DNA of 64,000 nt from a virus (Duplodnaviria; Heunggongvirae; Uroviricota; Caudoviricetes): positions 13,134-77,133 of IMG/VR virus record IMGVR_UViG_3300022821_000011; one strand, written 5' to 3'. The position numbers were made by a program, and so were the translations under genes. This document shows positions 1,819 to 64,000 of the stretch, one piece after another (within the stretch, counting starts at the first letter, position 1; every line of letters starts with the position of its first letter). The notes beneath the pieces were generated by a model that was not told the DNA's origin, did no database searches, and saw only the letters and a list, made by a program, of their open reading frames with translations.

Positions 1819-2516
1819 CTTTTATTTGCTAAAAACTTTTCATATGAAATTATTTCATTGCCCATCAGATTATCCATATCTAATTCAAACGTAGATAATT
1901 CATTTAAACATATAAATCTAGTATCTTCATGAAAATAATCAAAATCTACATGCCAATGACCAAAAATATGAATTTCTGGCTTGTGATGATAAAACATAGA
2001 ATTAAAAGCTTGTTGAGTTCTAGATGGAAAATCTAATTTATATCCACGATTTGCAGCCCATGCTAATTCATCTGATAAAAAATCAGGAGCTGTATGAGTG
2101 ATCATAACTCTTGGTTTTTCGTCAACAATTTTATCAATTAAAAGATCTAATTCTTTAATAGATAATTCTTCGTCTTCCCACCAATCATAACCTTCTGTTC
2201 TAAATGCTCGATCAATTGAAAGAGCGCCACCTATAAACATCATATCGTTTTCAATATGACCATCAGTTATACACTGAGAATGTCTAGAACACACAGATGG
2301 ATTATCATGATTTCCACGTATAAATCTATGATTTCCATTAACCATTATATCATATGGAGGATTAGGATGATAAAGATTTAAATTAAAAGCCTCTGCAATA
2401 TCTTCTCTTCTTTTAAATCCAACACCCATATCTCCCACTTGAATAGTATTAGAATATTGTTTAATTATATTTTTATAAGATCCAAATTTACCGTGAACGT
2501 CTCCAATAAGAATCAT
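1815..2516 (-). CDS. Calcineurin-like metallophosphoesterase
   Basis: Motifs GDVHG, GDMGVGF and GNHD. Confidence 0.7.
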   Translation of the reverse strand: MILIGDVHGKFGSYKNIIKQYSNTIQVGDMGVGFKRREDIAEAFNLNLYHPNPPYDIMVNGNHRFIRGNHDNPSVCSRHSQCITDGHIENDMMFIGGALSIDRAFRTEGYDWWEDEELSIKELDLLIDKIVDEKPRVMITHTAPDFLSDELAWAANRGYKLDFPSRTQQAFNSMFYHHKPEIHIFGHWHVDFDYFHEDTRFICLNELSTFELDMDNLMGNEIISYEKFLANKS

Positions 2517-3944
2517 TTATTTTTAAATCTTTCGTGTATTGCTGTTTGTTGTTCTATTGAAATAGAATTTTCAATATATTCCTGTATGTGATATGTATTT
2601 GTCGGGATTCTATAAATAGATGAAATTGACCTGTATGTTGACATGGAATTCAAATCACTGATTATATCATTTTGATAATTCATTAATCACCATATTCTTC
2701 TTTAATACATCCAATTATTCTATCAAAAGTTTCTTCGATAGCTTCTTCATCTACACCAAAATCATCTTCTAACATGTTCCAAATTTCTAGAAAATCATCT
2801 TCATGATCTTTCCAAAAATCATGTTTCTTATACCAATTTCTAAATGCTTTCATTATTTACTCACTTTAATTTTTTCATATGATATGAATATAAAAATTTT
2901 TGTTCTGCAGCCGATCCATTATCATTATTCCAATAATATAATTTAGTTTCTTTTGGAAGTTCATCAAACCATTTCCAAAAAGCTTTTATAAACTTATCGT
3001 CTTTATTTAGCTTTAAAAGAAAAGTGCTCATAATATCAAACAACCTCTTTGTTTTTATCGTTACACCATTTAATAGCAGATATCTGCTTATCGAAAACTC
3101 TTTTTCTAGTCCATAAGAAACATGAAAAACATGAGAAACTGATCCATAAAAAATTTTGCAAGGGACTCTACTATTAGCATATGAAACCAACTTCATATCA
3201 GCTCCAGACCCAACAGAAGTCCATTTTATTTCTTTATACATATGATTTTAAAATTGCTTCTACTGTTTTGTAATTTACATTTAAAATAGTTGATTGTGAA
3301 TATCTATTTTTAACAAAAGAATACGAATTACGAGAATCAAAAGTAATAACAATGTCCATCAGAATTACAAGAGAGTTTATTTTATTATTTTCTTGATCAA
3401 ATCGATTCTTATCAATTATTAAAACGTTGTCTAACCAGTTTCTCATCTTTCTTCTTCCCACTCACCAGCTGCTAAAAGCGCATTGCCAACTGGCCCCCAT
3501 TTTCTCGTATCACCGTCATATTTAAATAATAATTCATCTGATATTTCTCCTTCAATTAAACTATTATATTTTTTCATAGGCGCCAGACGGTGTGTTAGTC
3601 TCATAATATTTGTACCATCTTTTTTAAATTCAAAAGAATTTATGTAAGTTGATACCCACACATATTCTCTAAATTCATATGTTTCTGTGTTAATTAAACA
3701 CATATTTTTACGATCATATGGTGTTCCAATAACTATATCGTGAACATCTGTTATACTATTAAACACTCCAACAAATGAACGTTTTGGTGTATCTTGATCA
3801 AAGTCTGTGTACGTAAAAGCCATATACATAATAAAATACCTAATTAAAATAAAAAAATTCATTATTAATAAACGGTGTGCCACTCCGCGCGTCCAGAGGC
3901 CACTTTAAAGGAACATTAATTAGCGCGACGTCCTACCGAATTTT

Positions 3945-7617: not shown

Positions 7618-7711
7618 TGGTACTCCCACCAGGATTCGAACCTGGGACGCTCTCTAATCTGGAGACGATGCTGAATATAAGTCAGGTGTTTTACCGCTAA
7701 ACTATGGGAGT
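7618..7711 (-). tRNA. Type II tRNA with a long variable arm; apparent anticodon UAU from loop CTTATAT, so identity is unclear (Leu, Tyr or Ser class)
   Basis: Acceptor ACTCCCA/TGGGAGT plus ACCA, T-arm CCAGG-TTCGAAT-CCTGG, 94 nt. Confidence 0.6.
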
Positions 7712-7716
7712 ATTGT

Positions 7717-7791
7717 TGGTGCCTGTGAGAAGAATCGAACTCCTAATCTACACGTTACAAAGGTGTTGCCTTACCATTCGGCTACACAGGC
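7717..7791 (-). tRNA. tRNA-Thr (UGU)
   Basis: Acceptor GCCTGTG/CACAGGC, D-arm GCCG-AATGGTAA-GGC, loop TTTGTAA, CCA encoded. Confidence 0.75.
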
Positions 7792-7843
7792 GTTATTCTT
7801 TTTTTAACTTTCATCATAATAATTTTCCTTAGTATTAACTATT

Positions 7844-10099
7844 TCAGGATTTCAGGATTTCAGGAACCGATGTTTTATTTGATACAAATTCAAATCCAAG
7901 ATCATCATCTTTTATGACTACCTTAACTTTACCACCATTCATCAACTTGCCAAACAAAACTTCTTCTGCAAGTGGTTGCTTGATGTATTTCTGTATCACT
8001 CGAGCCAATGGACGCGCTCCCATTTGTTCATCATAACCTTTTTCAGCCAACCAATCTCTTGCTTTATCTGAAAGGTCAATAATAATCTCTCTTTCAGAAA
8101 GCTGATTTTCTAATTGATTAACAAATTTATCAACGATGGTACGAACAATTTCTGGCGTTAGATGTGAAAAGCTTACAATTGAATCCAAACGATTTCTAAA
8201 TTCAGGAGCAAAAAGCATATTGATAGCTTCTATATCATCACCTTCTCTTTTGTTTTGAGTAAAACCAAAGGCCGAGGCTGCTAGATTTTGAGCACCAGCA
8301 TTTGTAGTCATAATCAAAATCACATTACGGAAATTTACTGTTTTTCCATTGTTGTCTGTCAACTGACCATTATCCATCACCTGCAATAAAATATTAAAGA
8401 TGGCCGGATGGGCTTTCTCGATTTCGTCGAGAAGGAGAACGCAGTGAGGGTTTTGATCTACACTATCTGTAAGCAATCCACCCTGATCGAACCCAACATA
8501 TCCAGGAGGTGCTCCAATAAGACGGGATACACTATGCGACTCCATATATTCTGACATGTCAAATCTAATAAGATTTACATTAAGAGAATCAGATAGCTGC
8601 TTGGCCACTTCAGTTTTACCGACACCAGTCGGACCCGAGAACAAATAACAGCCAACTGGCTTTTCCATTTCTCTCAATCCAGCTCTAGAAGTCATAATTG
8701 AAGAAACCAAAGCATCAATTGCACTATTTTGACCGAAAACAGATCTTTTCATTTCGCCGGCCAAATCTTTTAGCAAACTACGATCATCTTGAGATATATT
8801 CTTAGAAGGTATTCTTGCAATTTTTGCAATAATATTTTCAATATCAACTACTTCAATTATCTTTTTTCTTTTATCTTCAGTGAACAGCATTTGCGCTGCA
8901 CCAGACTCATCAATCACATCAATTGCTTTATCTGGCAACTTACGATCATGAATATATCTTGAAGATAATTCTACAGCAGATTTTATAGCATCTTCAGTAT
9001 ATTCAACCTTATGAAAATTTTCATATCGAGATTTAAGACCATTCAAAATCTTAATAGCGTCTGCAATAGATGGTTCTTTAACATCTATTTTTTGAAAACG
9101 ACGAACAAGAGCTTTATCCTTCTCAAAATGCTGACGATATTCAGCATATGTGGTTGAACCAATACATCTCAATTCACCAGAAGCCAATGCTGGCTTTAAC
9201 AAATTAGAAGCATCCATTGCTCCGCCGCCAGTTGCGCCGGCTCCAATTAACATATGAATTTCATCAATAAACATAATAGCATTATCATGTTCTTTAATTT
9301 CATTTATAACCGCTTTAATTCTTTCTTCGAAATCTCCACGAAAACGAGCTCCGGCCATCATAGCGCCAAGATCAAGTGAAAAAATCGTACAATCAGAAAT
9401 CACTTCTGGAACTGCTTTGTCAACAATCAATTGGGCTATACCTTCAGCAATTGCTGTTTTACCAACACCAGGATCACCAACAAACAATGGATTGTTTTTC
9501 TTTCGACGGCAAAGAACCTGAATTGTGCGTTCGATTTCTTCTTCTCTACCAATAAGTGGATCAATTTTGCCATCAATAGCTTTTTTATTCAGATCAACAC
9601 AATATTTATCAAGAGCAGATTCGTCGTCGCCTCGCATCATTTCTTCATTACCAACATATTCCATTTCTTTATCTGATTTAGAAATTGCATTCACTATATT
9701 TTCTCGAGATATTCCAAATTCAGTCAAAAGAGTAACAGCATAACTATCTTTTTCTGCAAAGAGAGCAAGAAGAACATCTGAACCATTTACTTGTTCTCTG
9801 CCAGAAGATTGAACCATCACAACTGCTCTTTGAATTACTCGTTGAGCTGAGGCAGTAGGTTCAGGAACTTTTGCTGTATTTGAAGATGAATTATTTGAAG
9901 AGTCTTGAATATACTTATCTAAAGATACGCGTAATTCTCCTATACTTATTCCACATTTTACTATTACAGAAGAAGAACTCTTATTGTCTGTAAGAGCAAA
10001 AAGAAGATGTTCAAGTGTTATATATTCATGAGACATATTAGTTGCTAAAACAACTGCATCATGAAATGTCTTTTCTAAATTTTTAGCAAACGATGGCAT
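7844..10099 (-). CDS. clpA: ClpA-like double-ring AAA+ unfoldase/chaperone (Clp N-domain plus two AAA+ modules)
   Basis: N-domain [10 protein letters not shown]; Walker A GDPGVGKT (D1) and GPTGVGKT (D2); 751 aa with no long ClpB-type middle domain; SD AGGAG. Confidence 0.8.
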
Positions 10100-11836: not shown

Positions 11837-13297
11837 TTAAACTGCAATATCGTATCGCTCATTCATAATTGTTTTAAGCATAATAGCTTCAGGTGTCATA
11901 TTCTCCATATCAGAGCTAAGCACTGACTTAACAATAGTTGGAGAGAAACCAGAAACCATAGCTATACCACGATCGTCAAATCTAACTGGCACATCTGATT
12001 TTGCATTAAGATTCCAGAATACAATACCCGGCATAATATATCCAGCCATTTCATACTTATGACGAATCATTTCTACAGCTGAATGATCTAGATTTGCACA
12101 TTGATCAAACTGCATATCTGACATGATCATAATAACATCTGGCATATCTTCTTGTGGTACACTATGAGCTACAGCAAGATTAAGAACTTTATCAAAAGCA
12201 GCATGAAGATTTGTATTCATTGCCCATTTTGAACGCTTCATTTGATCTACTTTCTGAAGAATATCACCTCTAAGAGTAAGCAATTCAGGAGAACCAGAGA
12301 AAGTAAGGAATGTGTCCTTATAAACTCCGGTATTCTTATCAGCCAAATACAGGCCAAGAGACACTGAAACATCAAGACAAGTAACAGATGATTTGCTAGT
12401 ATGCCCACCCGCTAGAGTCATCATTGATCCAGAAACATCTACCATTGGAAGAATCTTTGCATCTCCAACAAAATTTGGAAGAGCTTTCCACTGAGCAGCA
12501 ATATGACCCTTTTCAACATTTGTATATCTTTGGTCATTATATATACTAGCCAGACCCTTAAGAACATCATAAGGATATACTGCTCCAGCATTTACTTTAA
12601 CACTCTCATCACCAGAAGTTAGCTTCTCAACATATTCTTCAAAATTAACAGAGTGACGATTAAAAGCCTTCTTATATCTAGCTGAAGCAAGAGAAGGAAC
12701 TTTGCTATAATCAATAGCATCCCATTCATTTGCACACATAAGTGTTTCAACAACCTTTGTAAGTTCTACAAGACGCTTACGATAAAACTTTGGAGTCCAT
12801 CCAAAATACTTACGAAGACTAACTGCCTTAGGACCTTTTCGTGGCATCCACTTAGCGCAAAGACCATTTCCATCATCAAGAGCTTTCTTAATAAGATCAT
12901 AAGCATAAGCCTTAACTGGAATGCTTTCAAAATCTACAAGAAGATCATCCCAACGGCCAATTTCCGGAGTCTTATCAATAAGAGCTTTAGCCTGATCTTC
13001 TGGCAAAAACTTCAAAATGTCACGATATATCTGACGTTCACCGCTTCCTTCACGAGCATCTCGAACCCACTGAGCAATACGCAAAGCGTACTCAGGATTC
13101 TCCACATGAGCCGCTGTGAAATCCGGCTTGATATTCTTCCCACGAGAAGCTCCGATCTTGAAAAAAAGATCTACATTCTTATTTGCAGAAGTAACACGAG
13201 ACTTCATACCATTTTCGGTACGGGCTTCTTGTTCTTGAATTGAATCAATAAACTTATTCATTTTCATTTTCCTTTCATCTGGATAATTGACCACCAT
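11837..13297 (-). CDS. rsr: Ro60-like protein (TROVE-like N-terminal region plus a C-terminal vWA domain with MIDAS motif VDVSGSM). The likely true start is MKMNKF, near 13270
   Basis: MIDAS DxSxS in LPMVDVSGSMM; overall size and architecture match Ro60/Rsr; SD AAGGAAA upstream of the internal ATG. Confidence 0.55.
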   Translation of the reverse strand: MVVNYPDERKMKMNKFIDSIQEQEARTENGMKSRVTSANKNVDLFFKIGASRGKNIKPDFTAAHVENPEYALRIAQWVRDAREGSGERQIYRDILKFLPEDQAKALIDKTPEIGRWDDLLVDFESIPVKAYAYDLIKKALDDGNGLCAKWMPRKGPKAVSLRKYFGWTPKFYRKRLVELTKVVETLMCANEWDAIDYSKVPSLASARYKKAFNRHSVNFEEYVEKLTSGDESVKVNAGAVYPYDVLKGLASIYNDQRYTNVEKGHIAAQWKALPNFVGDAKILPMVDVSGSMMTLAGGHTSKSSVTCLDVSVSLGLYLADKNTGVYKDTFLTFSGSPELLTLRGDILQKVDQMKRSKWAMNTNLHAAFDKVLNLAVAHSVPQEDMPDVIMIMSDMQFDQCANLDHSAVEMIRHKYEMAGYIMPGIVFWNLNAKSDVPVRFDDRGIAMVSGFSPTIVKSVLSSDMENMTPEAIMLKTIMNERYDIAV

Positions 13298-13400: not shown

Positions 13401-13589
13401 TTACAAGTCAAATGCTTTAAGCTTGCGGAAATGAACCTATTTTTATTTCAACAGATTAGTTATCTACTTCTTATTTAATGTGGAGAAATCGAAGACCACT
13501 GCCATGTTTTGATGGTTTGCTGCAACTAATCTAAATTCTAATTTTTATCTAACTACTACTAATTTTTACTTAAATATTCAACAGATTGA

Positions 13590-13710
13590 TATTTGCTACC
13601 TGCTCTACCAACTGAGCTACCTCTCCATAGAAAATGGTGGAGAGGGTTGGACTTGAACCAACGACCAGGGATTTTCAAGATCATGCTTTGATTGCTGTAA
13701 TCAATCTAAT
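13590..13710 (-). ncRNA. Circularly permuted tRNA-like module, candidate YrlA-type Y RNA number 1. Order is T-arm, acceptor 3' strand plus ACCA, an 8-nt loop, acceptor 5' strand, then D-arm
   Basis: Minus strand reads GTTGG-TTCAAGT-CCAAC CCTCTCC ACCA TTTTCTAT GGAGAGG TA GCTC-AGTTGGTA-GAGC. The flanks carry GATTGAT/ATCAATC complementarity. Confidence 0.5.
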
Positions 13711-39662: not shown

Positions 39663-40223
39663 TTAATCTTCTTCATTTTCCAACTCATCTTCTATTACTT
39701 CTTCATCATTAGACATTATATTACCAGTTCCAATCGCATACTTATTGTAAATATGTTCTTTGAAATCTGTATTTTCAAATAGATTCTTCCAAAATCTAAA
39801 GTTTGTTTTAATATCTTTTTCTAACATAGGTTCACCGATTAACTCTCCAGTATTTTTATTTACTGCTTGAAGACCATTAGATCTACTAATCTTTACTTTT
39901 GTTAAATATCCACCATCTACAGCTGTTTCTGATAATCCAGAATATTTACTAATGCCACCATCAAAATTGACGGTAATAGGAATTTTTGATTTTTCTTTTA
40001 CAAATCTAGATTTTTCAACGTTAATTATGAAATTGTACCCAGCCAGAGCTTTATCAGAATCCTTTTCTTGTTGTCTACCTATGATCCATACAGTATCAGC
40101 AGAATACATCACTCCAGTATTATGAGTAATGGCTCCATTTTCTAAAGCATAGTGTTGTACATCTTCTACAGATATATCATATACATTTTTGTTTCCCACA
40201 CTTTTAACACTTTTAATTTTCAT
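39663..40223 (-). CDS. uvsX: Split-intein C-terminal half (about 35 aa ending ...VQHYALENGAITHN) fused to the UvsX C-extein (TGVMYSADTVWIIG...)
   Basis: Intein block G (HN) followed by a +1 Thr. The C-extein aligns with T4 UvsX from TGPMYSADTV onward. Confidence 0.75.
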   Translation of the reverse strand: MKIKSVKSVGNKNVYDISVEDVQHYALENGAITHNTGVMYSADTVWIIGRQQEKDSDKALAGYNFIINVEKSRFVKEKSKIPITVNFDGGISKYSGLSETAVDGGYLTKVKISRSNGLQAVNKNTGELIGEPMLEKDIKTNFRFWKNLFENTDFKEHIYNKYAIGTGNIMSNDEEVIEDELENEED

Positions 40224-41067
40224 TCTTTTTACACCTTTCGTTGTGCCATCTTTTTATATTTCCAACAGTACTTTCTATTCCACAAATAAAACAGACTTCT
40301 CTTTTTTGTTTAATAGAAGAAGGATTTTTCCAAACAGACAAATCATATTTCTCTATATCTTTAATTTTTATTCTAATGCATCTTCCATCTTGTATGTTTT
40401 TTAACATAAGAAAACCTTTTCTTCCTATCTTTTTTTTATGTTCTTCTGATTTAGGAATGCCCATTCTATCTAAACTCATTTTTAATTTTACTTCTTTGGA
40501 ACGAACGCTTCCTAAATTTTTATTAGATATGAGTTTTTTTGTTTTTTTAGAATGTTTTTTTCCATAAAATGGATTTTTTTCTCCTGATATATTATTAGAT
40601 ATAGATGCTTTATGTTCTTCACTCAGCTTCCTGCCTTTTGTCACACCTACCCACTCATTATTTAAAACTCTAGGATGATCTCTTGGAAGTCTTGCAATTT
40701 TTCCAGTCTCTAGATTTTTATATGTAGCATAATTTGAATCTAAATAATTACTAATAGTCGCAATCGATTTATTAAAATATTCAGGTGATGCGACAACACC
40801 ATAAAAAATGTGAAGTTCTTTTTCCTTTTCTAAACACTTTTCGTATGAATCAAAACTTTCTAAAATTTCTATTTCATAATCACAGTATTCAACTATATTT
40901 TTGTATTCTGGATCACAAGAGGATCCAAAATATTCGTTGTTTCTAGAATCATAAATTTTATTATTTCTAATAATACAATTAGATTTGCTTCCAATATACC
41001 TGTTTGGAAATCTATTTCTATCAATTTTAATTAAATAGACTATATTGCTATATCTGCTGTGTAACAT
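40213..41067 (-). CDS. Free-standing GIY-YIG homing endonuclease with NUMOD3-like repeats, inserted between the two uvsX split-intein halves
   Basis: VYLIKIDRNRFPNRYIGSKSN...YFGSS GIY-YIG core; repeated SEEHKxxIS NUMOD-like motifs. It is in a different frame from both uvsX pieces. Confidence 0.7.
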   Translation of the reverse strand: MLHSRYSNIVYLIKIDRNRFPNRYIGSKSNCIIRNNKIYDSRNNEYFGSSCDPEYKNIVEYCDYEIEILESFDSYEKCLEKEKELHIFYGVVASPEYFNKSIATISNYLDSNYATYKNLETGKIARLPRDHPRVLNNEWVGVTKGRKLSEEHKASISNNISGEKNPFYGKKHSKKTKKLISNKNLGSVRSKEVKLKMSLDRMGIPKSEEHKKKIGRKGFLMLKNIQDGRCIRIKIKDIEKYDLSVWKNPSSIKQKREVCFICGIESTVGNIKRWHNERCKKNEN

Positions 41068-41999
41068 ATATCGGTTCCTTTTTTGTTGGTGCCGATATTT
41101 ATTATTCTGGTGTTTTCTACTAAATTCTTGGCTTCAATCCATCCATCAGATGTTAAAAATCTATGATCGTGTGATACAGTACATTTATGTCCATCATCAA
41201 ATTCAATTTCATAACACTCTTTAAATCCTTCTTCTAATGTCTGAGGGTTCCAAGTGTGTGTTACTTTTTTATTACCTTCTAATGTTTCAACAAAATCATC
41301 AATAGTTATATTTTCAATAGATTTTAAACCATTAGCAGTCAATATCTTAGTGCCTTCTACAACACATCCGCCACTAACAACTTCTCTACTATACATTTCC
41401 AATGATTTATACGTATGGTTCACAACCATCATTGGAATATCTTTTAAAGTAAGGTGTGGAGTTATCATTCTAAATAAAGATTTCATGGCTTTGGCTCTAG
41501 TCATATCAGCTACAACTTTTCCATCTAATGCATCATCAATTTCTTTTCTAGATGCTAAATTACCAATCGAATCTATTATAATACAAGCTTTATCACCACG
41601 CTCTAAACCATTTAACTGAGTCATCAAATCATGCTTAAGTTTTTCAATATCTGTAATTGGTGTATGAACAGTTCTTATTTTATCTGTTTCAAAAGAATCG
41701 AAATAAGATTCTGGAGTTCCAAATTCTGAATCATAAAACAAAATAGCTCCTTCTGGATATTGCTTTTGATAAGCTGAGCCAATTAAAAGAGAAAAAGCAG
41801 ATTTGAAATGCTTTGATGGACCGGCTAATACTGTAAGGCCAGGAGAAAGTCCTCCATCAATTCTGCCAGATAAAGCAACATTAACCATTGGCACTGGTGT
41901 TGGAATCATATCTTTCTTACCGTATACTTTTGATTCAGTAAGAATTGCAGTTTCTTTAATAGTAGAGTTTTTTAAAAGTTTTTTTACGAGTTCGTTCAT
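41040..41999 (-). CDS. uvsX: UvsX N-extein (aa 1-211, RecA-like) fused to the split-intein N-terminal half (starts CVVEGTKILTANG...)
   Basis: MVNVALSGRIDGGLSPGLTVLAGPSKHFKS is strongly T4 UvsX-like. The extein ends ...VVSGG, followed by Cys1 of the Hint domain. Confidence 0.8.
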   Translation of the reverse strand: MNELVKKLLKNSTIKETAILTESKVYGKKDMIPTPVPMVNVALSGRIDGGLSPGLTVLAGPSKHFKSAFSLLIGSAYQKQYPEGAILFYDSEFGTPESYFDSFETDKIRTVHTPITDIEKLKHDLMTQLNGLERGDKACIIIDSIGNLASRKEIDDALDGKVVADMTRAKAMKSLFRMITPHLTLKDIPMMVVNHTYKSLEMYSREVVSGGCVVEGTKILTANGLKSIENITIDDFVETLEGNKKVTHTWNPQTLEEGFKECYEIEFDDGHKCTVSHDHRFLTSDGWIEAKNLVENTRIINIGTNKKGTDICYTADIAI

Positions 42000-48367: not shown

Positions 48368-49186
48368 TTATTCTATTTTAGAACTAGATAAATCTTTTGT
48401 AGATCTATTTGTTTTCTTCTTTAACTGACTTGGATCTGCTGTTGCAGAAGCTCCAATAGAAGCTAAATCTTGTAACGACCCTCCAAATATATAAGTGCCA
48501 ACGTGATTCATCTTCATCCATGGGCAGAACCAGACTTTACCACCTGCTTTTTGCACATCATAACAGAAAAGATAATCCTCAGATAAATATCTTCTAGAAT
48601 CTGGATCAATTGCAGCCTGGAAGAACATATGAATTTCTCTATCACCACTAAAGTGTTCTGTTCTAACATGATCTGGTTTATAGCTTTTTTCTGGATAAGA
48701 CTTCATATAATCTTCAAATGTTTTACGTCTGATCATCATGAAACCAGTTCCAATTTCTAAAACTTCTACTGGCTTATGAAGAGAAATCGAACCACTGCCC
48801 TGTTTTGGATTAAATACATAATCACCAACATACTTTTCAAGAACATTTGGGTCATCATCAGCAACACCACGATCTACAGCAAGTTTAATTTTTTCCCACG
48901 AAATACACTTCTTCGGATATGGCCCACCAATTACATCATATTCTGATTCGTCAGTCTGAAGAGCTAAAAGAGCTAATACATCTTTTGGATCAAATCCAAT
49001 GTCAGAATCGATAAACATAAGATGAGTCGCGCCAGATCTCATGAATTCATCACAACAATAATTTCTTGCACGAGTGACAAGAGATTCATTAAAAAGAAAA
49101 TACATCTGTAATGGAATTTGATATTGGGCGCACATAGCAGAAAGATCTGCAATCGATCTAGCAAACATTCCTGCACAATTTCCCAT
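48368..49186 (-). CDS. Putative GT-A-fold glycosyltransferase (DxD motif in LMFIDSDIGF)
   Basis: Motif-level only. Confidence 0.35.
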   Translation of the reverse strand: MGNCAGMFARSIADLSAMCAQYQIPLQMYFLFNESLVTRARNYCCDEFMRSGATHLMFIDSDIGFDPKDVLALLALQTDESEYDVIGGPYPKKCISWEKIKLAVDRGVADDDPNVLEKYVGDYVFNPKQGSGSISLHKPVEVLEIGTGFMMIRRKTFEDYMKSYPEKSYKPDHVRTEHFSGDREIHMFFQAAIDPDSRRYLSEDYLFCYDVQKAGGKVWFCPWMKMNHVGTYIFGGSLQDLASIGASATADPSQLKKKTNRSTKDLSSSKIE

Positions 49187-49544
49187 TTATATTCGCATAG
49201 ATTCGTAATATCTATACCGCTTTCGCTGCTTTATATTGCTATAAAGATTAGACTATATCTTCATCCCAATTTATTGGGAGCTGGGCGCTTCGAAAACCAT
49301 GTACTTGTTTTCTACTCCTTTCGGATAGTCGTTGAACCTTCCATTTTTCAATGGCTTGGCTGCTGATAATCCACGCGGGACGTCCCAGCAATTCACCCAG
49401 TTATCATCTTTAAATTACTTTAAAGTGAGGCAGATTTACCATACATAGGAGTTGCAATGAACAATTTCTTTTTTCTTAATTCTTCAATTGGAACTTTTAA
49501 TTGAAATCCTTGATTTGGTGCTTGTTCTTCTTTTTGTTCTTCAC

Positions 49545-49895
49545 TCATTCTTTTTTATTCCCTAAGTTATTTACATCATGGTTGTGTAATTGTATCATTG
49601 TGTAATGAATAATTTTTAAAAGATCATTACGATTATACCCAGCTTTTCGCCCATATCTTTGAGCATATTTTAAAATATTTCCCATACAAAAACCAGTGCC
49701 GTGACCGGAGTCCAAAATGAACTCCGTGGCTTGATACTTGTTTGAAGAATAATGTTCTTGATAAGTTGAGTCAACATATTGTTGCATCTCATCAATATAT
49801 TTATTCTCATTATATTTGTAATTTGGGGATTCGTCTGGAAATATCGTAAATTTGATTCCAGGTTTTGTTGTTTTATTCATTTCATCATCTTTCAT
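49545..49895 (-). CDS. DUF3310-like phage protein, with a T4-type late promoter TATAAATA 18 nt upstream
   Basis: Plus-strand tatttata at 49913-49920. Confidence 0.4.
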   Translation of the reverse strand: MKDDEMNKTTKPGIKFTIFPDESPNYKYNENKYIDEMQQYVDSTYQEHYSSNKYQATEFILDSGHGTGFCMGNILKYAQRYGRKAGYNRNDLLKIIHYTMIQLHNHDVNNLGNKKE

Positions 49896-49924: not shown

Positions 49925-50629
49925 TTAGGCTGAAGCTTTAGAAGTACTTGTATTTTTATTTTTCACAAGTTCTTTTCTATCAGAATCGCTATATATTGCG
50001 TCCATCTTTGCTGCGGCAGATCCTACTGAAGCAGAAGAAGCAGCAAAAGCCGAATTTCTAGAAGCAAGATCACTAAATGTACCTCTCAAATTAGACTTAT
50101 TAAATGTAGCAGAATAATCGCCTTTAAAACCATAATTCATACCAGCAGCAAAGCCATCTTGATCAGCACCAAGATAAATCATAAGCCAATCATCATTTTC
50201 TTTCTGAGAAATAAGCTTCTTAATATCATCAGCCTTAAATTCCTTAGAATGATTTTCATGGCCATCTGTTATTACGACAAAAGCTACAGCTTCATTCTTT
50301 TCAAGCTTTACTTTCTTATCAATAAACTTAATTGATTCGCCAATAGCATCAAACAAGTTTGTCATACCATTTGGTTGATATTCATCAACATGTCTCTTAG
50401 CTTCTGTTGGTGAAACACATTCACAGACATTTTTGATCTTATCACCTTCAAAGAATGTAATAGATACTGATGTGCTTTCTTGGTCAACCGATGTCAAATA
50501 CTCATTAAGAGCTTCTACTGTTTGATTTCTATCAGCCATCATAGATCCAGACTCATCTACAACTAAATGAGCATATAGTTTACCAGTGTTCTTTTTAATT
50601 AATTTTGCCATTATTTTTTCCTTATTCAA
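49925..50629 (-). CDS. vWA-domain protein (MIDAS VVDESGSM ... NGMTNLFDAIG)
   Basis: DxSxS ... T ... D MIDAS residues. Confidence 0.65.
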   Translation of the reverse strand: MNKEKIMAKLIKKNTGKLYAHLVVDESGSMMADRNQTVEALNEYLTSVDQESTSVSITFFEGDKIKNVCECVSPTEAKRHVDEYQPNGMTNLFDAIGESIKFIDKKVKLEKNEAVAFVVITDGHENHSKEFKADDIKKLISQKENDDWLMIYLGADQDGFAAGMNYGFKGDYSATFNKSNLRGTFSDLASRNSAFAASSASVGSAAAKMDAIYSDSDRKELVKNKNTSTSKASA

Positions 50630-51830
50630 AAAATGTTTCTAGTGTGTTTTGTTTTTCATTCCAATTATCATGAGACTTATTCAAATTACTTTGAAATAAG
50701 TAATCTGTCTCGATGAATTCACGATTACCATCAATCACATTCTTTATTTCTGTTGCCATATCCTTTGATGTTTTATAATGAACATTTTGGCAAATGTGAT
50801 TAACCGATTTAGTTGGATTTAATAGCTCAAAATCAGCTGGTAAACCCATAATAGTCATTGCTTCTCTATATGTTATATAGCGATCTTCATATGGATGAGT
50901 CAGAACATTTGGATAATGCCCAACAAAAGCTCCAATATAATCTTTTGGTATAATAGTTCCCCTTCTCATAATATTACCGCCGGCTGCTAATTTATGAAAT
51001 TTTCTATTACATTTTGGAACTTCTCTATCATATCCATTTTTAGCCATCCATTCTCCAACAACATCATATGTATAACCGGCTCTTTCGATTAAAGACTCTA
51101 TATCATTTCCTCTAACATTCTTTGTTTCAAGAACATCAAAAAACTCACGATGAGTTATGCCACCATGTATTTCTTCTAACATATATCTATAATATGGATC
51201 ATCTTTTGATGGTGTTTTAGAGTTGATTGGCTCCATCTGAAAATTGCTAGTAACACCAGTAATAACATCTTCAATTTTATCATGGGGTCTATTAAAATAT
51301 TGAAGCAGTGGTGTTTTTTCTCCAAATTCTTTTTTGTTCCAAAAGAAATAAAACGATCTTTTTCTGAATTGAGGAACACCATGTAATATATTTTTAGTTA
51401 AATATAAACTCATTCCATAACCATTCTTAAGAGAAATATCTCTTAATTTATCAAGCATGAATTTACCAATCTTCCCTGCTAGCGCTGGGGCATTCTCACC
51501 CCAGAACACTAGTGGCTTTACCTCGCCTAAAACATAATTAGCAGTCTTTTCCATCCATTGATTATTTTGATTATCTTCTCCAGCTTTATGATGATATTGA
51601 CTTAGACCAGCGCATGGACATACTGAAGAAACAACATCAATTGGATAAGGAAAAGAGCCACCTTTATCAAGAAGATAATAAGGAACTTCATTATTATAAT
51701 AATTTAATAAATGAGATTCATTTGCTTCAAATGGTGAATAACTTAAAATATACTCAGGTCTATTTCCCCACACTTCATCAGAAGCTAGAACTTCTCCTCC
51801 TATAAGTGGTATTATACTAGCGTGTTTCAT
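50622..51830 (-). CDS. C5-cytosine-DNA-methyltransferase-like protein
   Basis: Motif I-like IPLIGGEVLA (compare LFAGLGGFRLA), motif IV-like SVCPCAGLSQ (compare GFPCQAFS), motif VI-like WGENAPAL (compare ENV). Confidence 0.45.
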   Translation of the reverse strand: MKHASIIPLIGGEVLASDEVWGNRPEYILSYSPFEANESHLLNYYNNEVPYYLLDKGGSFPYPIDVVSSVCPCAGLSQYHHKAGEDNQNNQWMEKTANYVLGEVKPLVFWGENAPALAGKIGKFMLDKLRDISLKNGYGMSLYLTKNILHGVPQFRKRSFYFFWNKKEFGEKTPLLQYFNRPHDKIEDVITGVTSNFQMEPINSKTPSKDDPYYRYMLEEIHGGITHREFFDVLETKNVRGNDIESLIERAGYTYDVVGEWMAKNGYDREVPKCNRKFHKLAAGGNIMRRGTIIPKDYIGAFVGHYPNVLTHPYEDRYITYREAMTIMGLPADFELLNPTKSVNHICQNVHYKTSKDMATEIKNVIDGNREFIETDYLFQSNLNKSHDNWNEKQNTLETFFE

Positions 51831-52924
51831 ACAAATAAATCCTCTAATGTAGATCTTTCAATTCCATTATATTCTAACCCCTGCCAATATGGATAATATT
51901 CTCTAGATATATGAACAGATTTTGGTTTTTCCATTACTTTAAAATCCATCTCTCCTTCTGCATTATAAAATTCAGGAGTTATCCATTCTTTAATTTTGAT
52001 ATCTGTTCCTTTAGTGCTAATACACAATCTCTCTTTAAAATATTTACGTGCGGTATCCCTGTTTTCCCACGAGCCATAATATGATGTCCCATTGTAATGG
52101 CCGCTTTTTGGGATATTTCGTCGTGTATTTTCAATAGGAAGTAATTCATAGATGGCTTTAGTTTCATATTTCATCTCACTTACTTGTTTTACATAACGAT
52201 CTACTAAATTATTTACAGCAGCTTTCATATCATCAAATCTACATATATGATGTCTTATATCGATATTACCAAAATAAAATTCTACATGATTTATTCCAGG
52301 CTCAATAAAGGACTCAAGTCCCATTTCAAGGGCGCCATGGAGTGTTTTATAAGGAACTGAATTTATATTCCATCCTGGCCTATACATGCATATAGCATGG
52401 CTATCTCCAACAACTAACTTATCCCATGGACCTTTTGGTTTAATAACAATAGCTCTTTTTTGCATTTCTCTTAAATTGGCGACATCGACTTCAAGAAATT
52501 CTTTTATAATTCCTTCTTTGCCGTGCTTGTTTTCGAAATGGTTAAGCTTATTTTCAAGCATTGTAGCATAATCTGGCATATTATAATCAATGGAATAAAC
52601 TTCTCCTTTAAACCATGATATATTTCTAATATTATATGCGTGTGGAAATTCTCTAACACCACCAAAGAAATTCAAATCAGTAGAATCAGCTTTACGGTCG
52701 TTTCCATGATACATGTATAATCTATCATATTTATTAAAGTCTTCGGTTTTGTTTTCTTCTTTAGCCTTCTCTCCTTGCACGCTAGGTCTTGAAAGACTAA
52801 CTGTTATATCATCACAATGTCTACTTTGTTTAAGCAAGTCTGCATATATAACTCCTTGTGCAGCTCTATGACTTGCTAACTGAAACGATATTGGAATAAA
52901 TGGAGCGGCAATAACTGATTTCAT
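51827..52924 (-). CDS. Hypothetical 365-aa protein in the modification cluster
   Basis: No recognisable motifs. Confidence 0.3.
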   Translation of the reverse strand: MKSVIAAPFIPISFQLASHRAAQGVIYADLLKQSRHCDDITVSLSRPSVQGEKAKEENKTEDFNKYDRLYMYHGNDRKADSTDLNFFGGVREFPHAYNIRNISWFKGEVYSIDYNMPDYATMLENKLNHFENKHGKEGIIKEFLEVDVANLREMQKRAIVIKPKGPWDKLVVGDSHAICMYRPGWNINSVPYKTLHGALEMGLESFIEPGINHVEFYFGNIDIRHHICRFDDMKAAVNNLVDRYVKQVSEMKYETKAIYELLPIENTRRNIPKSGHYNGTSYYGSWENRDTARKYFKERLCISTKGTDIKIKEWITPEFYNAEGEMDFKVMEKPKSVHISREYYPYWQGLEYNGIERSTLEDLFV

Positions 52925-52933
52925 ATCAAATCC

Positions 52934-54016
52934 TTATACAAAAAAACTATCTAATGTGGACCCACTCTTTTTTTCTTCTATTTGACTAGCAATATCAAAA
53001 AATGAATCAAAGGTTAATGGAAGCATTCTTTTTTCTTGAGCTTTTGGATTATCTTTAATTCCTAAAAAGCAATTAAATTGACAGAAGGTTATTTCAGTTC
53101 CAAATGTAGTTAATTTACCACCACGTTCTAAATTATTTTGAAACCAAAATAAGTCAGAATCTTTTAAATCAAAAAACTCATACTGATGTTTCTTAACAGA
53201 CACAATAAATTTTTCCATTATAGAATTATTTGAAAACTTAACATCTGGAAAAACGAACTCAAGACCTCTTTTTGCTCCTGGACCAACTAAACAATAATCT
53301 TCATCTTCATCTATATGAGAAAGATCTATACTTCTAGAAAAATTACAGGGAGGATGATAAGAAAAATAAGGACCTATTCCACGATGCTGTAAAAGCCAAT
53401 CACAGACATCTTTAAGTTTAGATTCTGGATTTTGAACCACATCACTCATTCCCTGTCGATCTAGTTCTTCTATCCATCTTATCATATGAGATAATTTAAA
53501 TGGAGCTTCTTCATTTTGCTCTTGAATTCTAACAAAATTTCTTGCTGCTGTTTGAAGACTTGTTTGGAGCTGAGTAGCTCCCCACACTTTAGTCTTAAAG
53601 CGATTTTCATCTAAATTTTTATTGATAAAATCATAATATTCTTCATGTTTAGAATATTCATCAAAATTTATAATATTTGAATAATCAGAAGAATCTGTAG
53701 CCACTAAAGTTAGTGTTGGCATCCCAACAAATTTAACAGCCATAGCATTTAAAATTTTGTTTTTCATAGAAGTTTCTTGATTAAAAACAAAATTTTCTAA
53801 CCAAAAAACTTCAGCATGTTTAGATCTATTTGGATTCCAATATGAAACAGCTGGTCTCATAGCAGATCCAAATAAATCTGAAACATCATACTCTTCTAAT
53901 CTATTTGATTCTCTTAGATATTCTCGTTTAAAGAAATCGATAACCCAATCTCTAAAATAAGAAAAATTATCAGCATTTTTAAAAGAATTTAATTCTGATA
54001 AGTTAAATGTATTCAT
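52934..54016 (-). CDS. Hypothetical 360-aa protein in the modification cluster
   Basis: No recognisable motifs. Confidence 0.3.
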   Translation of the reverse strand: MNTFNLSELNSFKNADNFSYFRDWVIDFFKREYLRESNRLEEYDVSDLFGSAMRPAVSYWNPNRSKHAEVFWLENFVFNQETSMKNKILNAMAVKFVGMPTLTLVATDSSDYSNIINFDEYSKHEEYYDFINKNLDENRFKTKVWGATQLQTSLQTAARNFVRIQEQNEEAPFKLSHMIRWIEELDRQGMSDVVQNPESKLKDVCDWLLQHRGIGPYFSYHPPCNFSRSIDLSHIDEDEDYCLVGPGAKRGLEFVFPDVKFSNNSIMEKFIVSVKKHQYEFFDLKDSDLFWFQNNLERGGKLTTFGTEITFCQFNCFLGIKDNPKAQEKRMLPLTFDSFFDIASQIEEKKSGSTLDSFFV

Positions 54017-62129: not shown

Positions 62130-62500
62130 CTTGATCAAAATAAATTATTAGACGAACCCAAACTAAATTTATTGGAGTATTCTGTTGCTAGGCTACTCCA
62201 GGCCCCAGTACTCTAGTTTCTAATCCACAAAGGGATCAGGCAGCAAGAGCCAAAGGTGCAAAGTTATCGTTTGCGTTTAGTTTCTAGCCAGTCGGCCAAC
62301 CAGTTAACTCCAGTTACTCATTACGCACCCAATCGATCCCAGTTCATCCCCATCAAAAGAAGTGCGACCTTTGTGCACCAAGTCTTTTCAAACACCAATA
62401 GAATATTCTAGCACTTCTTTTGGTGGAGATGGGCGGATTCGAACCGCCGTGTTAAGTGTTTTTTGTTTCCTTCAACGTCAACATATTATTTATATCACAT
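62130..62500 (-). ncRNA. ssrA: Two-piece (circularly permuted) tmRNA gene. The acceptor piece (T-arm GGCGG-TTCGAAT-CCGCC, CATCTCC, ACCA) lies upstream of the coding piece (5' GGGGATGAACTGGGATCGA...). Tag reading frame 62274..62236 is GCA AAC GAT AAC TTT GCA CCT TTG GCT CTT GCT GCC TGA, giving ANDNFAPLALAA
   Basis: The 5' GGGGATG pairs with the 3' CATCTCC. A D-loop analogue GGGATCGA is present. The tag ends ALAA followed by a stop. A 10-bp hairpin AAAGAAGTGC...GCACTTCTTT lies between the pieces. The promoter is at 62489..62517. Confidence 0.65.
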
Positions 62501-62517
62501 TATTTGTTTGGTGTCAA
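62489..62517 (-). promoter_or_regulatory. Sigma70-like promoter TTGACA-17-TATAAA driving the tmRNA
   Basis: Plus-strand tgtcaa at 62512-62517. Confidence 0.5.
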
Positions 62518-62519
62518 CA

Positions 62520-63047
62520 CTTATTTAGTTATCTTTAATAATGTATCACCAATTAATTCTTTTTTTGAAAAAAATTGAACACTCCAATCATAATAAAATT
62601 CTCTTCCACGATAATCATGAATAAAGATCAATGGATTCTTTTTTGTAGATTTTATAAAAATTGTAGCTAATGTAGCAGCCCTAGCTATACCATCTACAAA
62701 AACAAATCAGAATCCCATATATCAAATTTAGGATTTATATAATGATCTAAACCGCAAGCCATTTCTTCGTTTGGAGTTGCAAATTTATAAAAATCAATAT
62801 CAACATTTAATTTAAACATTGTATATGAATAGTTCTTTTTTGGTTGTTCTTTTAATTTTTTGCTAACAATAGAATACCATTCTGGATTATGCTCTATTGA
62901 ATATAAAAATTGGGTGTCTTTAAGTTGTTTTAAAAACCATAAAGTAGACCCACCAGATCCCCATTCGACTATTTTAGCATTATCAGGAAGCGCTTTTAAA
63001 GAATTTTCTAAATAATCTAATTCATTGTTTCTCATCAATGGAATCAA
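62520..63047 (-). pseudogene. Class I SAM-dependent methyltransferase-like gene interrupted by a frameshift near the T-run at about 62700
   Basis: ORF 62694..63047 carries VEWGSGGSTLWF (motif I). The alternate frame continues ...DGIARAATLATIFIK...IFIHDYRG. Confidence 0.4.
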
Positions 63048-63095: not shown

Positions 63096-63947
63096 TTATT
63101 TAAGGTCAATACTTTTTTCTTCAAATTGAGCTACAAAAGGTATAGTTTTAAGTTTTCCTTTTCTCATAACTTCAACCCAAAATACTTCATCTTTTTCTAA
63201 CATAGAAAGATTAATCAATACATCAGTCATATTAAGTATTTTTCCGTTTGTAGCAGAAGAATATGATGATATAATTCTAACTAATCTATCACCTTTTTCA
63301 AGTCCATATATACTAGCAGGACTTTCTGGCATGATATTAAGAACATATAAATCACCATCTTCTTTTTCTTTAAGAGAAATACCAAGCTTAAACCAGTATA
63401 CTGAGTTAAATTTTGTAAGTTGTCTAATTACTTTTTGAACAAAATCTCCAGTTAAAGAAAAACCATATGATCCTCCAGGTCTAGCCAGCATTCTTGAATT
63501 CATACCAATCACACGCCCATTATAATCTAGTAATGGACCGCCAGAATTACCCTGATAAATTTTAGCATCTACCTGAATAAAATACTGTGGTGTTTGATCA
63601 ATTCGTCTATTTAAAGCAGATATAATTCCTCTAGATACAGAATATTCAAGACCCCATGGATGGCCAAAAGCCCAAATTCTTTGTCCTAATTTTAAATTTT
63701 CTGATGGAGAAAAAAATAGCTTTTTCCACTTTTCTTCATTTTTATATAAATTCCATTCATTAATAGCAACAATAGCTATATCACTTGAAATATCGCTTGC
63801 AATAACCTTTGCTTTATATTTTTTATTTGATTTACTATTTTTAACATAAATAAAAGTAGCACCATTAACAACATGCTCATTTGTAATTATAACATTATTA
63901 TCAATGAAAAATCCAGTTCCTAATCCTCTGGCTTCTTTATCTCCCAC
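63096..63947 (-). CDS. HtrA/DegP-like trypsin-fold serine protease with a C-terminal PDZ domain
   Basis: Catalytic TNEHVV (His), GNSGGPL (Ser) and a PDZ-like C-terminus. Confidence 0.75.
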   Translation of the reverse strand: MGDKEARGLGTGFFIDNNVIITNEHVVNGATFIYVKNSKSNKKYKAKVIASDISSDIAIVAINEWNLYKNEEKWKKLFFSPSENLKLGQRIWAFGHPWGLEYSVSRGIISALNRRIDQTPQYFIQVDAKIYQGNSGGPLLDYNGRVIGMNSRMLARPGGSYGFSLTGDFVQKVIRQLTKFNSVYWFKLGISLKEKEDGDLYVLNIMPESPASIYGLEKGDRLVRIISSYSSATNGKILNMTDVLINLSMLEKDEVFWVEVMRKGKLKTIPFVAQFEEKSIDLK

Positions 63948-64000
63948 AGTTTTTGTGGAATATACTACAACAACGCCATCAATAGTTTCTTCGACTATAT

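Follow-up and report, generated by a model that had tools for sequence, protein, structure and literature searches.

The question which this locus raises is whether a phage carries, and makes use of, its own transfer-messenger RNA (tmRNA) gene in the circularly permuted, two-piece form. The stretch of DNA analysed here (64,000 nucleotides, positions 13,134 to 77,133 of the IMG/VR record IMGVR_UViG_3300022821_000011 of a Caudoviricetes virus, hereafter the window) had drawn attention in a sequence-only reading, which noticed at 62130-62517, on the minus strand, a tRNA-like 3' half placed ahead of the 5' end and of a tag reading frame, the gene order of permuted ssrA. Both programs which that reading had named for a check, ARAGORN and Infernal, support this order. 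ARAGORN called a permuted tmRNA (tmRNA*) at 62145-62513 on the minus strand with the tag ANDNFAPLALAA and labelled it 'Permuted', its 3' domain occupying gene positions 55-93 and its 5' domain positions 163-189. Infernal, run on the whole window, matched the locus to two Rfam covariance models well above their cut-offs, RF04321 (tmRNA_permuted) with 94.5 bits against a cut-off of 47 (E = 5e-17) and RF01849 (alpha_tmRNA) with 88 bits against a cut-off of 50 (E = 2e-22), the latter being the member of the tmRNA clan left once the lower-scoring clan matches were removed. The ARAGORN call and these E values rule out a chance origin of the locus. A standard one-piece tmRNA was called by neither ARAGORN nor Infernal with Rfam, and no second 3' half follows, as had been claimed: neither a second T-arm nor a CCACCA was found in the 1.7 kb downstream of the tag. 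Thus, the locus is a real and intact permuted tmRNA gene and the earlier sighting is confirmed.

All elements of the gene lie on the minus strand, and coordinates are those of the window throughout. T-arm, acceptor strand, ACCA, 5' end and tag frame could each be read where they had been listed. A predicted sigma-70-type promoter (62489-62517), read from the sequence, consists of a -35 box TTGACA (62517-62512), a 17-nt spacer and an extended -10 element TGaTATAAA (62497-62489), and its position predicts a transcription start near G62482; it is absent from the listing of a consensus scanner because the rule of that scanner demands a T at position 6 of the -10 hexamer. The upper edge of the span first proposed for the gene coincides with this promoter site, whereas the lower edge, 62130, falls about 15-40 nt past the modelled 3' end. 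The acceptor piece (62421-62482, 62 nt) contains the ARAGORN 3' tRNA domain, and the RF04321 alignment begins at its first nucleotide, 62482. It comprises the 5' strand of helix P2, GUUGA (62482-62478), the conserved stretch CGUUGAAGGAAAC (62477-62465), the T-arm GGCGG/TTCGAAT/CCGCC with a 7-nt T-loop (62448-62432), the 3' acceptor strand CATCTCC (62431-62425) and the discriminator A with the encoded CCA (62424-62421). It is followed by an intervening segment of 69 nt (62352-62420), predicted to be excised, whose final UGAU abuts G1 and whose ends form the 10-bp hairpin that had been noticed between the pieces, AAAGAAGTGC/GCACTTCTTT (62420-62411 with 62365-62356). The coding piece (62171-62351, carried on to 62145 by ARAGORN) has the 5' end GGGGATGAACTGGGATCGA, starting at 62351, and contains the 5' acceptor strand GGGGAUG (62351-62345), the D-loop analogue AACUGGGAUCGA (62344-62333), the P2 3' strands (62332-62303), a 5-bp hairpin UGGCC-GACU-GGCUA at the position of PK1 (62298-62285), the tag frame, and an alpha-type 3' hairpin UGGAGUA/UACUCCA with a GCAACAGAA loop (62200-62173). 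The acceptor stem GGGGAUG:CAUCUCC, 7 bp including G3:U70 and followed by A and CCA, joins the 5' and 3' ends of a tRNA-like domain in which the T-arm is present and the anticodon arm absent. The tag frame called by ARAGORN (62236-62274) has 12 codons and a TGA stop (62238-62236), and reads GCA AAC GAT AAC TTT GCA CCT TTG GCT CTT GCT GCC TGA, that is, ANDNFAPLALAA and stop; it opens without a start codon on an alanine resume codon, GCA (62274-62272), just after an ACUAAAC resume context, and closes with a hydrophobic ..LAA end before the stop.

The tag had been described as of the Caulobacter type, and this assignment holds, as it begins like AANDNFAEEFAVAA (PMC1233412), RF01849 is the best-scoring model of the clan, and the 3' hairpin of the alpha subtype is in place, GGGGCCUGGAGUAGCCUAGCAACAGAAUACUCCAAU matching RF01849 model positions 320-355 with high posterior probability. 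Two traits of the alpha subtype are therefore present, the ANDN.. tag and the 3' hairpin of the coding piece with its GCAACAGAA loop, whereas the T-loop trait is not: the window has UUCGAAU and ACAC against the consensus GGCgGUA and GGAC. The further suggestion that the permuted form hints at the host lineage turned out to be weak, as phage Melnitz carries an alpha-type ssrA and yet infects a non-alphaproteobacterial host, and as the T-loop of the window is not of the alpha type. A search for the host with the 19-mer GGGGATGAACTGGGATCGA against 2 x 596 Gb of genome contigs, in which about four chance matches of a 19-mer are expected, returned only a site in Legionella moravica, with no tmRNA there. 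For the gene itself the tag favours an alphaproteobacterial origin, without establishing the host.

Related copies were used to ask whether the RNA is constrained. With a 17-mer from the start of the tag as search pattern 119 stretches were retrieved from IMG/VR, many of them adjoined by T4-like genes; at least 55 hold a permuted tmRNA with an ANDNFA.. tag, three of these with exactly ANDNFAPLALAA, and between this family and the SsrA annotated in Melnitz the identity is 79%. We aligned 52 distinct phage-borne tmRNAs of the ANDNFA type with MAFFT after removal of the intervening segments, the structure being derived from Rfam. In this alignment 83.5% of cells were paired as compared to 64.5% in shuffles, and the covariation score was 0.439 versus 0.118 in shuffled alignments and 0.05-0.13 with slid partners. 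The acceptor stem is paired in 100% of cases with double changes at three pairs, and G3:U70 is kept in 52/52; in the T-arm each of the five pairs is formed in 100% of cases, with covariation at four. Both pieces of the RNA are linked by the outer P2 helix; it is 94% paired and covaries at 5/5 pairs, so that the two halves which the sequence-only reading had assigned to one molecule do pair. The inner P2 helices are only 45-63% paired, at least partly because MAFFT misaligns them by one column.

The tag frame gave a similar picture. In a set of 51 distinct tags from phages, entropy over the final four sense codons, which lay outside the 17-mer search pattern, is at most 0.4 bit at codon positions 1 and 2 and 0.97-1.81 bit at codon position 3. 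This codon-like variation in the tail indicates that the tag frame, including its C-terminal LAA, is under selection. The same observation bears on the idea that the RNA is a decoy or inhibitor, titrating host SmpB, AlaRS or EF-Tu or competing with the host tmRNA and so blocking host trans-translation. Such a role has been proposed for the RNA of mycobacteriophage DS6A, which consists of a tRNA-like domain only, and it thus has a precedent in a molecule of this kind that inhibits tmRNA (PMC4131195, PMC11915505); moreover, the window and its syntenic relatives have tRNA-like domains of different types. A decoy, though, needs no tag frame, and here frame, resume context, stop and C-terminal A-A are kept with synonymous-type variation in the 51 tags and in the syntenic relatives, while P2 and the 3' hairpin are retained as well; we consider a decoy very unlikely.

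IMG/VR also contained a second group of viral contigs (loci L002, L009, L018, L040, L053, L063, L069, L077 and L089) with permuted tmRNAs, canonical T-loops and the tags ANDEKFALAA and ANDESYALAA, which we take to resemble betaproteobacterial ones. The alpha type may thus not be the sole type of phage-borne two-piece tmRNA.

Within the phage's own lineage, at least nine metagenome samples yielded contigs nearly identical to the window, up to 150 kb in length. In the 14 loci compared identity reaches at least 99.95%, and none of the 14 differs from the window in its tmRNA region (100% identity). More distant relatives were reached through the HtrA-like protease gene that lies next to the tmRNA, homologues of which, at 54-57% identity, point to the syntenic contigs L335/L336, L337 and L339; the open reading frame (ORF) as read in the window (283 amino acids) had returned no IMG/VR relatives, because the real gene starts past the window end and encodes 328 amino acids. 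The common order is GGQ protein, DUF1937, AdoMet decarboxylase, protease, gap, 125-amino-acid gene, DenV-like, MazG-like and ThyA, and in the gap downstream of the protease ARAGORN found a permuted tmRNA in each syntenic relative, with a tag of 12 codons, ANDNNAYMAVAA or ANDNFAPMAIAA. The promoter TTGACA-17-TATAAAT is common to the window, L335, L337 and L339 while its spacer sequences are unrelated. The motifs CGUUGAAGGAAAC and CUGGAG in P2 are conserved across the same four, the alpha-type 3' hairpin with its GCAACAGAA loop recurs in the three relatives, and the outer P2 helix carries a compensatory change within the lineage (GUUGA/UUAAC to GUAAU/AUUAC). The intervening segments of the lineage, 69-117 nt long, show no mutual sequence similarity, and each has a closing helix of 8-10 bp and UGAU before G1. 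A search around the DNA polymerase gene was less informative: no tmRNA was found within 10 kb of polB in the 80 closest IMG/VR polB loci (at most 54% identity), a null result that tells little because the tmRNA of the window itself sits 18 kb from polB. By this comparison of sequences the tmRNA gene is inherited at a fixed site in the lineage and selected for structure and tag.

These observations speak against a non-functional relic, be it a host ssrA caught by imprecise prophage excision or a drifting leftover attachment site. Integration into ssrA genes is common and prophages contain pieces of such genes (PMC9004378, PMC4383910), and a few near-invariant positions do differ in the copy of the window. 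The locus is nevertheless a whole gene and not a fragment, with its own conserved promoter, and its place in the gene order is the same in relatives that share only about 55% identity in the neighbouring proteins, the changes being compensatory and not random. No integrase-type family match was obtained among the scanned ORFs within about 4 kb, and the genome is T4-like, with no lysogeny genes in the part examined. A relic is, to our mind, extremely improbable.

With the anatomy of the gene, its covariation, the conservation of its syntenic site and promoter and the selection on its tag frame observed, the locus is probably a functional, phage-encoded, circularly permuted ssrA gene which, judging from these sequence comparisons, would serve ribosome rescue and tagging during infection. 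Its processing and charging, its dependence on host SmpB, the timing of its expression and its physiological benefit are what we infer, and the steps proposed follow established knowledge of two-piece tmRNA. The conserved promoter would drive a precursor of about 310-340 nt, in which the ends of the 69-nt intervening segment would pair and thereby lengthen the acceptor stem. Host RNase P would cleave 5' of G62351 and host 3'-end processing would trim the RNA to the encoded CCA at 62421. The products would be two RNAs, the acceptor piece with about 62 nt and the coding piece with about 180-205 nt, joined to each other through the 7-bp acceptor stem and through P2. Host AlaRS would charge this RNA via G3:U70 and A73, and host SmpB and EF-Tu would bring it to ribosomes stalled on broken or non-stop mRNAs. 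Resumption at GCA62274 would append (A)ANDNFAPLALAA, after which the TGA stop would free the ribosome and the product would be marked for Clp-type proteolysis, possibly with the help of a phage ClpA docked on host ClpP. The phage would profit from a lasting supply of ribosomes in infection, beside its 26 tRNAs.

Folding lends indirect support to the precursor stage of this scheme. In the RNAfold prediction the helix of the intervening segment grows from 10 to 12 bp and stacks upon the acceptor stem (z = -4.2; 0/200 shuffles as good), and the predicted precursor fold includes the T-arm, the acceptor stem and this 12-bp extension. The feature is common to the family: the end duplex reaches -8 kcal/mol or lower in 52/52 distinct intervening segments of phage permuted tmRNAs, with a mean energy of -13.0 kcal/mol as against -4.2 in shuffles, and GAT stands directly before G1 in 46/52. 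The coding piece folded alone gave z = -1.4. Several observations weigh against a functional ssrA gene. Co-folding of the two pieces gave the acceptor stem only, an alternative fold being otherwise preferred, and the energy gained was no better than with shuffled acceptor pieces. Mid-P2 has two mismatches in the Rfam alignment of the window copy, and PK1, upstream of the resume codon, seems to have shrunk to a 5-bp hairpin; in this region the window lacks 11 alignment columns of the family, and four family members miss the region altogether. GGAC before the T-arm has become ACAC, which changes two near-invariant positions: the change from C:G to U:A is compensated while that from G to C in the near-invariant GAC is not. 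Moreover, no SmpB was found in the window (tblastn with an E. coli query, a weak test) or in about 19 kb of flanks (Pfam), in a genome of about 150 kb. Host SmpB is therefore presumably used, and function hinges on compatibility with the host.

It may also be argued that the main purpose of the RNA is directed proteolysis and not rescue, the tmRNA acting with the phage's own ClpA and maybe with the HtrA-like protease, Hsp20 and GGQ protein, so that stalled nascent chains of the host would yield amino acids and aggregates would be cleared by a phage-run quality-control and recycling module. A recycling idea of this kind was raised for Melnitz by Buchholz et al. (PMC9004378). A ClpA is indeed encoded by the same genome: a full-length gene within the tRNA array (7844-10099, minus strand) matches the NCBIfam equivalog TIGR02639 with 1065 bits against a cut-off of 993, and its product carries an FGF tripeptide at the position of the IGL ClpP-docking loop of E. 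coli ClpA. Directly upstream of the tmRNA lies the gene of an HtrA/DegP-like serine protease (minus strand, 63096-64000 and on to about 64082 past the window; L330:8954-9940 on a contig of the same phage), with a Trypsin_2 and a weak PDZ match, and this pairing is kept in the syntenic relatives. The same phage encodes, past the window end and at a distance of 5-9 kb upstream from the tmRNA, an IbpA-like Hsp20 (L330:1713-2180) and the GGQ protein, and the C-terminal LAA of the tag is under selection, as discussed above. Co-occurrence does not, however, prove that genes act together, the distance between ClpA and the tmRNA is about 52 kb, and ClpP, ClpS and SspB were not found in the window by tblastn with E. 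coli queries, which is a weak test. HtrA-type proteases are not known to act on ssrA tags. We regard proteolysis as the main purpose as rather unlikely, and prefer rescue with tagging.

The GGQ protein merits attention of its own. It has 125 amino acids, a Pfam RF-1 domain and the motif GKGGQKRNK, and is encoded 5 kb upstream of the tmRNA (L330:5119-5496, corresponding to about 67540-67917). As a stand-alone protein it is kept in L335 (636-1091) and L337 (503-862), with 119-151 amino acids across the set. It stays below every NCBIfam cut-off, its best matches are the GGQ domains of PrfH, RF2 and ArfB, and its C-terminus is acidic, unlike that of ArfB. It may be a second ribosome-rescue or release factor of the phage.

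The unusual T-loop raised the question of where the tRNA-like domain of the window comes from. In the syntenic relatives L335, L337 and L339 the T-loop is of the alpha type (GGCAGUA or UGCAAUA), the T-arm is preceded by GGAC and the 5' half has ..UAGGAUCGAC, where the window has UUCGAAU, ACAC and CUGGGAUCGAU. In the 3' half of the domain the syntenic relatives are 62-72% identical to the window as compared to 94% (31 nt) for two phage-like metagenome contigs, L307 and L308, while in the rest of the coding piece the order is reversed, with 61-72% for L335, L337 and L339 (72% in L339) and about 53% for L307 and L308. The 19-nt 5' half is identical to the window in L307, L308 and a third such contig, L312, which is no evidence because that 19-mer served as the search pattern; the canonical T-loop and a U:A pair at the base of P2 are likewise common to the window and these three contigs. 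In the distinct sequences the D-loop analogue AGG goes with an alpha-type T-loop in about 44/45 and UGG with a canonical T-loop in 6/7. As the tRNA-like halves are adjacent in a permuted gene, in a cassette of about 150 nt, a single exchange could replace the whole domain. We tentatively suggest, from short segments of sequence, that the tRNA-like cassette has been exchanged for the canonical-T-loop type of unrelated phage contigs and the mRNA-like part, homologous to that of the syntenic relatives, kept, and that the RNA forms with ClpA, the HtrA-like protease, Hsp20 and the GGQ protein a phage-run toolkit for rescue and proteolysis; the odds are against this proposal. If true, modular swapping would be a means by which phages retune, for instance after a host shift, the host-facing part of tmRNA, with its contacts to SmpB, AlaRS, EF-Tu and RNase P, while keeping their own tag. 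The apparent switch of T-loop and D-loop analogue in one lineage is in itself a natural experiment, from which it could be learnt where the domain has to fit the host.

The claim that the gene stands in a phage is borne out by its surroundings. The window has 32% GC, with nearly all genes on the minus strand, and encodes a T4-type replication module made up of gp43 family B polymerase, gp45 clamp, gp44 clamp loader, gp41-type helicase and a split UvsX, which rules out a bacterial or organelle origin; it further encodes ThyX, NAMPT, a NadR-like enzyme, DNA-modification genes, ClpA and 26 tRNA genes called by ARAGORN, none of them for Cys or Tyr. The gp43 is at most 48% identical to that of cultured phages, the best being Kyanoviridae cyanophages, and at most 54% to that of IMG/VR contigs. 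No nucleotide match was found in INPHARED with blastn of the tmRNA or megablast of 24 kb, apart from tRNA-like fragments at E values up to 10. Proteins of the window are on record on contigs of up to 150,443 bp, and the identifiers of the samples gave no match in the literature. By these sequence distances, the window belongs to a deep-branching, previously undescribed T4-like phage lineage.

Several other features of the window were noted. Next to the tmRNA, two short ORFs (113/117 and 59 amino acids) at 62521-63047 on the minus strand resemble one gene broken by a 1-base frame shift at a T-run (about 62697-62703). All 14 independent loci of the phage share exactly this break, which excludes an error of a single assembly; L337 has one ORF of 183 amino acids at this place, matched by position only. 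At 13572-13694 (minus strand) there is a Y RNA-like match (YrlA, RF02553; 40.1 bits, below the cut-off of 69; E = 3e-7 in an 800-nt search), in which a permuted tRNA-like module, with T-arm GTTGG/TTCAAGT/CCAAC and CCTCTCC-ACCA followed by GGAGAGG and a D-arm, received no tRNA call from ARAGORN. This element lies 275 nt upstream of a DUF2828/DUF7788 protein of 486 amino acids (ORF 11837-13297, minus strand; phrog_850, 'RNA-binding protein'), which is probably its Ro60/Rsr-like partner; a sequence search of the PDB gave no match for the Ro-like protein. A group I intron (RF00028, 83.8 bits) at 49229-49448 on the minus strand separates ORF 49545-49895 (phrog_480, kinase-like) from ORF 48368-49186 (phrog_1574). 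The UvsX-like recombinase seems to be split (39663-41999, minus strand) into an N-part (41040-41999, with a weak intein-splicing match) and a C-part (39663-40223), with a NUMOD3 homing-endonuclease ORF (40213-41067) between them. A tRNA-Ile with anticodon TAT (7618-7711, minus strand; ARAGORN; Rfam tRNA 60.8 bits) is, with 94 nt, long for an Ile tRNA and may hold an insertion or a long variable arm. Finally, a DNA-modification cluster at 50622-54016 (minus strand) includes a C5 cytosine methylase-like gene (50622-51830) and a second gene, which has a 5-hmdU DNA kinase helical domain (52934-54016), with ThyA and dCMP deaminase genes nearby, and suggests hypermodified thymidine or cytosine in the phage DNA.

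How does this gene compare with known systems? It is not new in kind, phage-borne two-piece tmRNAs having been described since 2022, when Buchholz et al. reported a two-piece alpha-type ssrA in the Methylophilales phage Melnitz (PMC9004378). In that study 402 of 18,146 phage genomes had a tmRNA, which was of the two-piece form in 53, and of these 53 aquatic phages made up 50; permuted tmRNA was present in 17 of 47 Melnitz-like contigs (PMC9004378). With these figures, and at least 55 cases from a single 17-mer scan of IMG/VR, the sequence-only reading was right only in part in calling a phage-borne copy unusual. A tmRNA database of 2025 lists 79 phage sequences and 11,946 permuted ones, and RF04321 is its merged alpha, beta and cyanobacterial model (PMC11915505). 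The gene of the window resembles the SsrA of Melnitz and of pelagimyophage-like contigs in being two-piece and alpha-type with an ANDN.. tag (in Melnitz ANDNYVPVDYALAA), and Melnitz itself is likewise a T4-like aquatic myophage whose tmRNA has its own promoter, a phage smpB being reported or found in neither. It differs in that there is no detectable nucleotide similarity with Melnitz or any INPHARED phage beyond short tRNA-like motifs, that the glutamine riboswitch of Melnitz is not present in the window, that the T-loop is canonical and not alpha type, and that the neighbour of the tmRNA is an HtrA-like protease gene in place of the gp33 and gp59 genes; the gp43 of the window phage is only about 48% identical to that of Kyanoviridae.

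With the two-piece tmRNA of Caulobacter crescentus (Keiler, Shapiro and Williams 2000, cited in PMC9004378) the gene shares the order of acceptor piece, intervening segment and coding piece. The encoded CCA, the tag start (A)ANDNFA and the match to the alpha_tmRNA model including its 3' hairpin are also common to both, whereas the window gene is phage-borne and AT-rich, has a shorter tag of 12 residues and a hairpin in place of a clear PK1, and carries the canonical UUCGAAU instead of the alpha consensus T-loop GGCgGUA. Knowledge of one-piece tmRNAs in phages goes back to the mycobacteriophage Bxz1 group; the mycobacteriophages of cluster C, such as Bxz1, and Bacillus phage G (PMC4131195) are lytic and, like the phage of the window, combine many tRNA genes with a tmRNA, presumed to support translation, but their genes are standard one-piece genes of the host's type while that of the window is permuted. 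The phage-like metagenome contigs L307, L308 and L312 share the permuted form and a nearly identical tRNA-like domain and differ in their tags (ANDNSTMDIALAA; AKTVNVNFVAHNDNDLSVMEIAA), which are unrelated to that of the window, and in their gene neighbourhoods (ClpX-like, NrdAB); the gene content of L307 and L308 is unrelated to that of the window. In L307 a ClpX-like gene (zinc ribbon and AAA+, phrog_4339; 2495-3745) lies about 4 kb from the contig's own permuted tmRNA (7656-8042, tag ANDNSTMDIALAA), which makes it another viral-looking contig that pairs a tmRNA with a Clp unfoldase.

What is new here is the canonical T-loop where the relatives have the alpha type, and the co-encoded ClpA, HtrA-like protease, Hsp20 and GGQ protein, which together with the 26 tRNAs offer a gene set in which to test phage-run translation quality control. 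The current understanding is not overturned; rather, a well-supported example from a new T4-like lineage is added to the phage-borne two-piece tmRNAs, and its inheritance at a fixed site, with structure and tag under selection, argues that phage tmRNAs are used and are not accidental captures.

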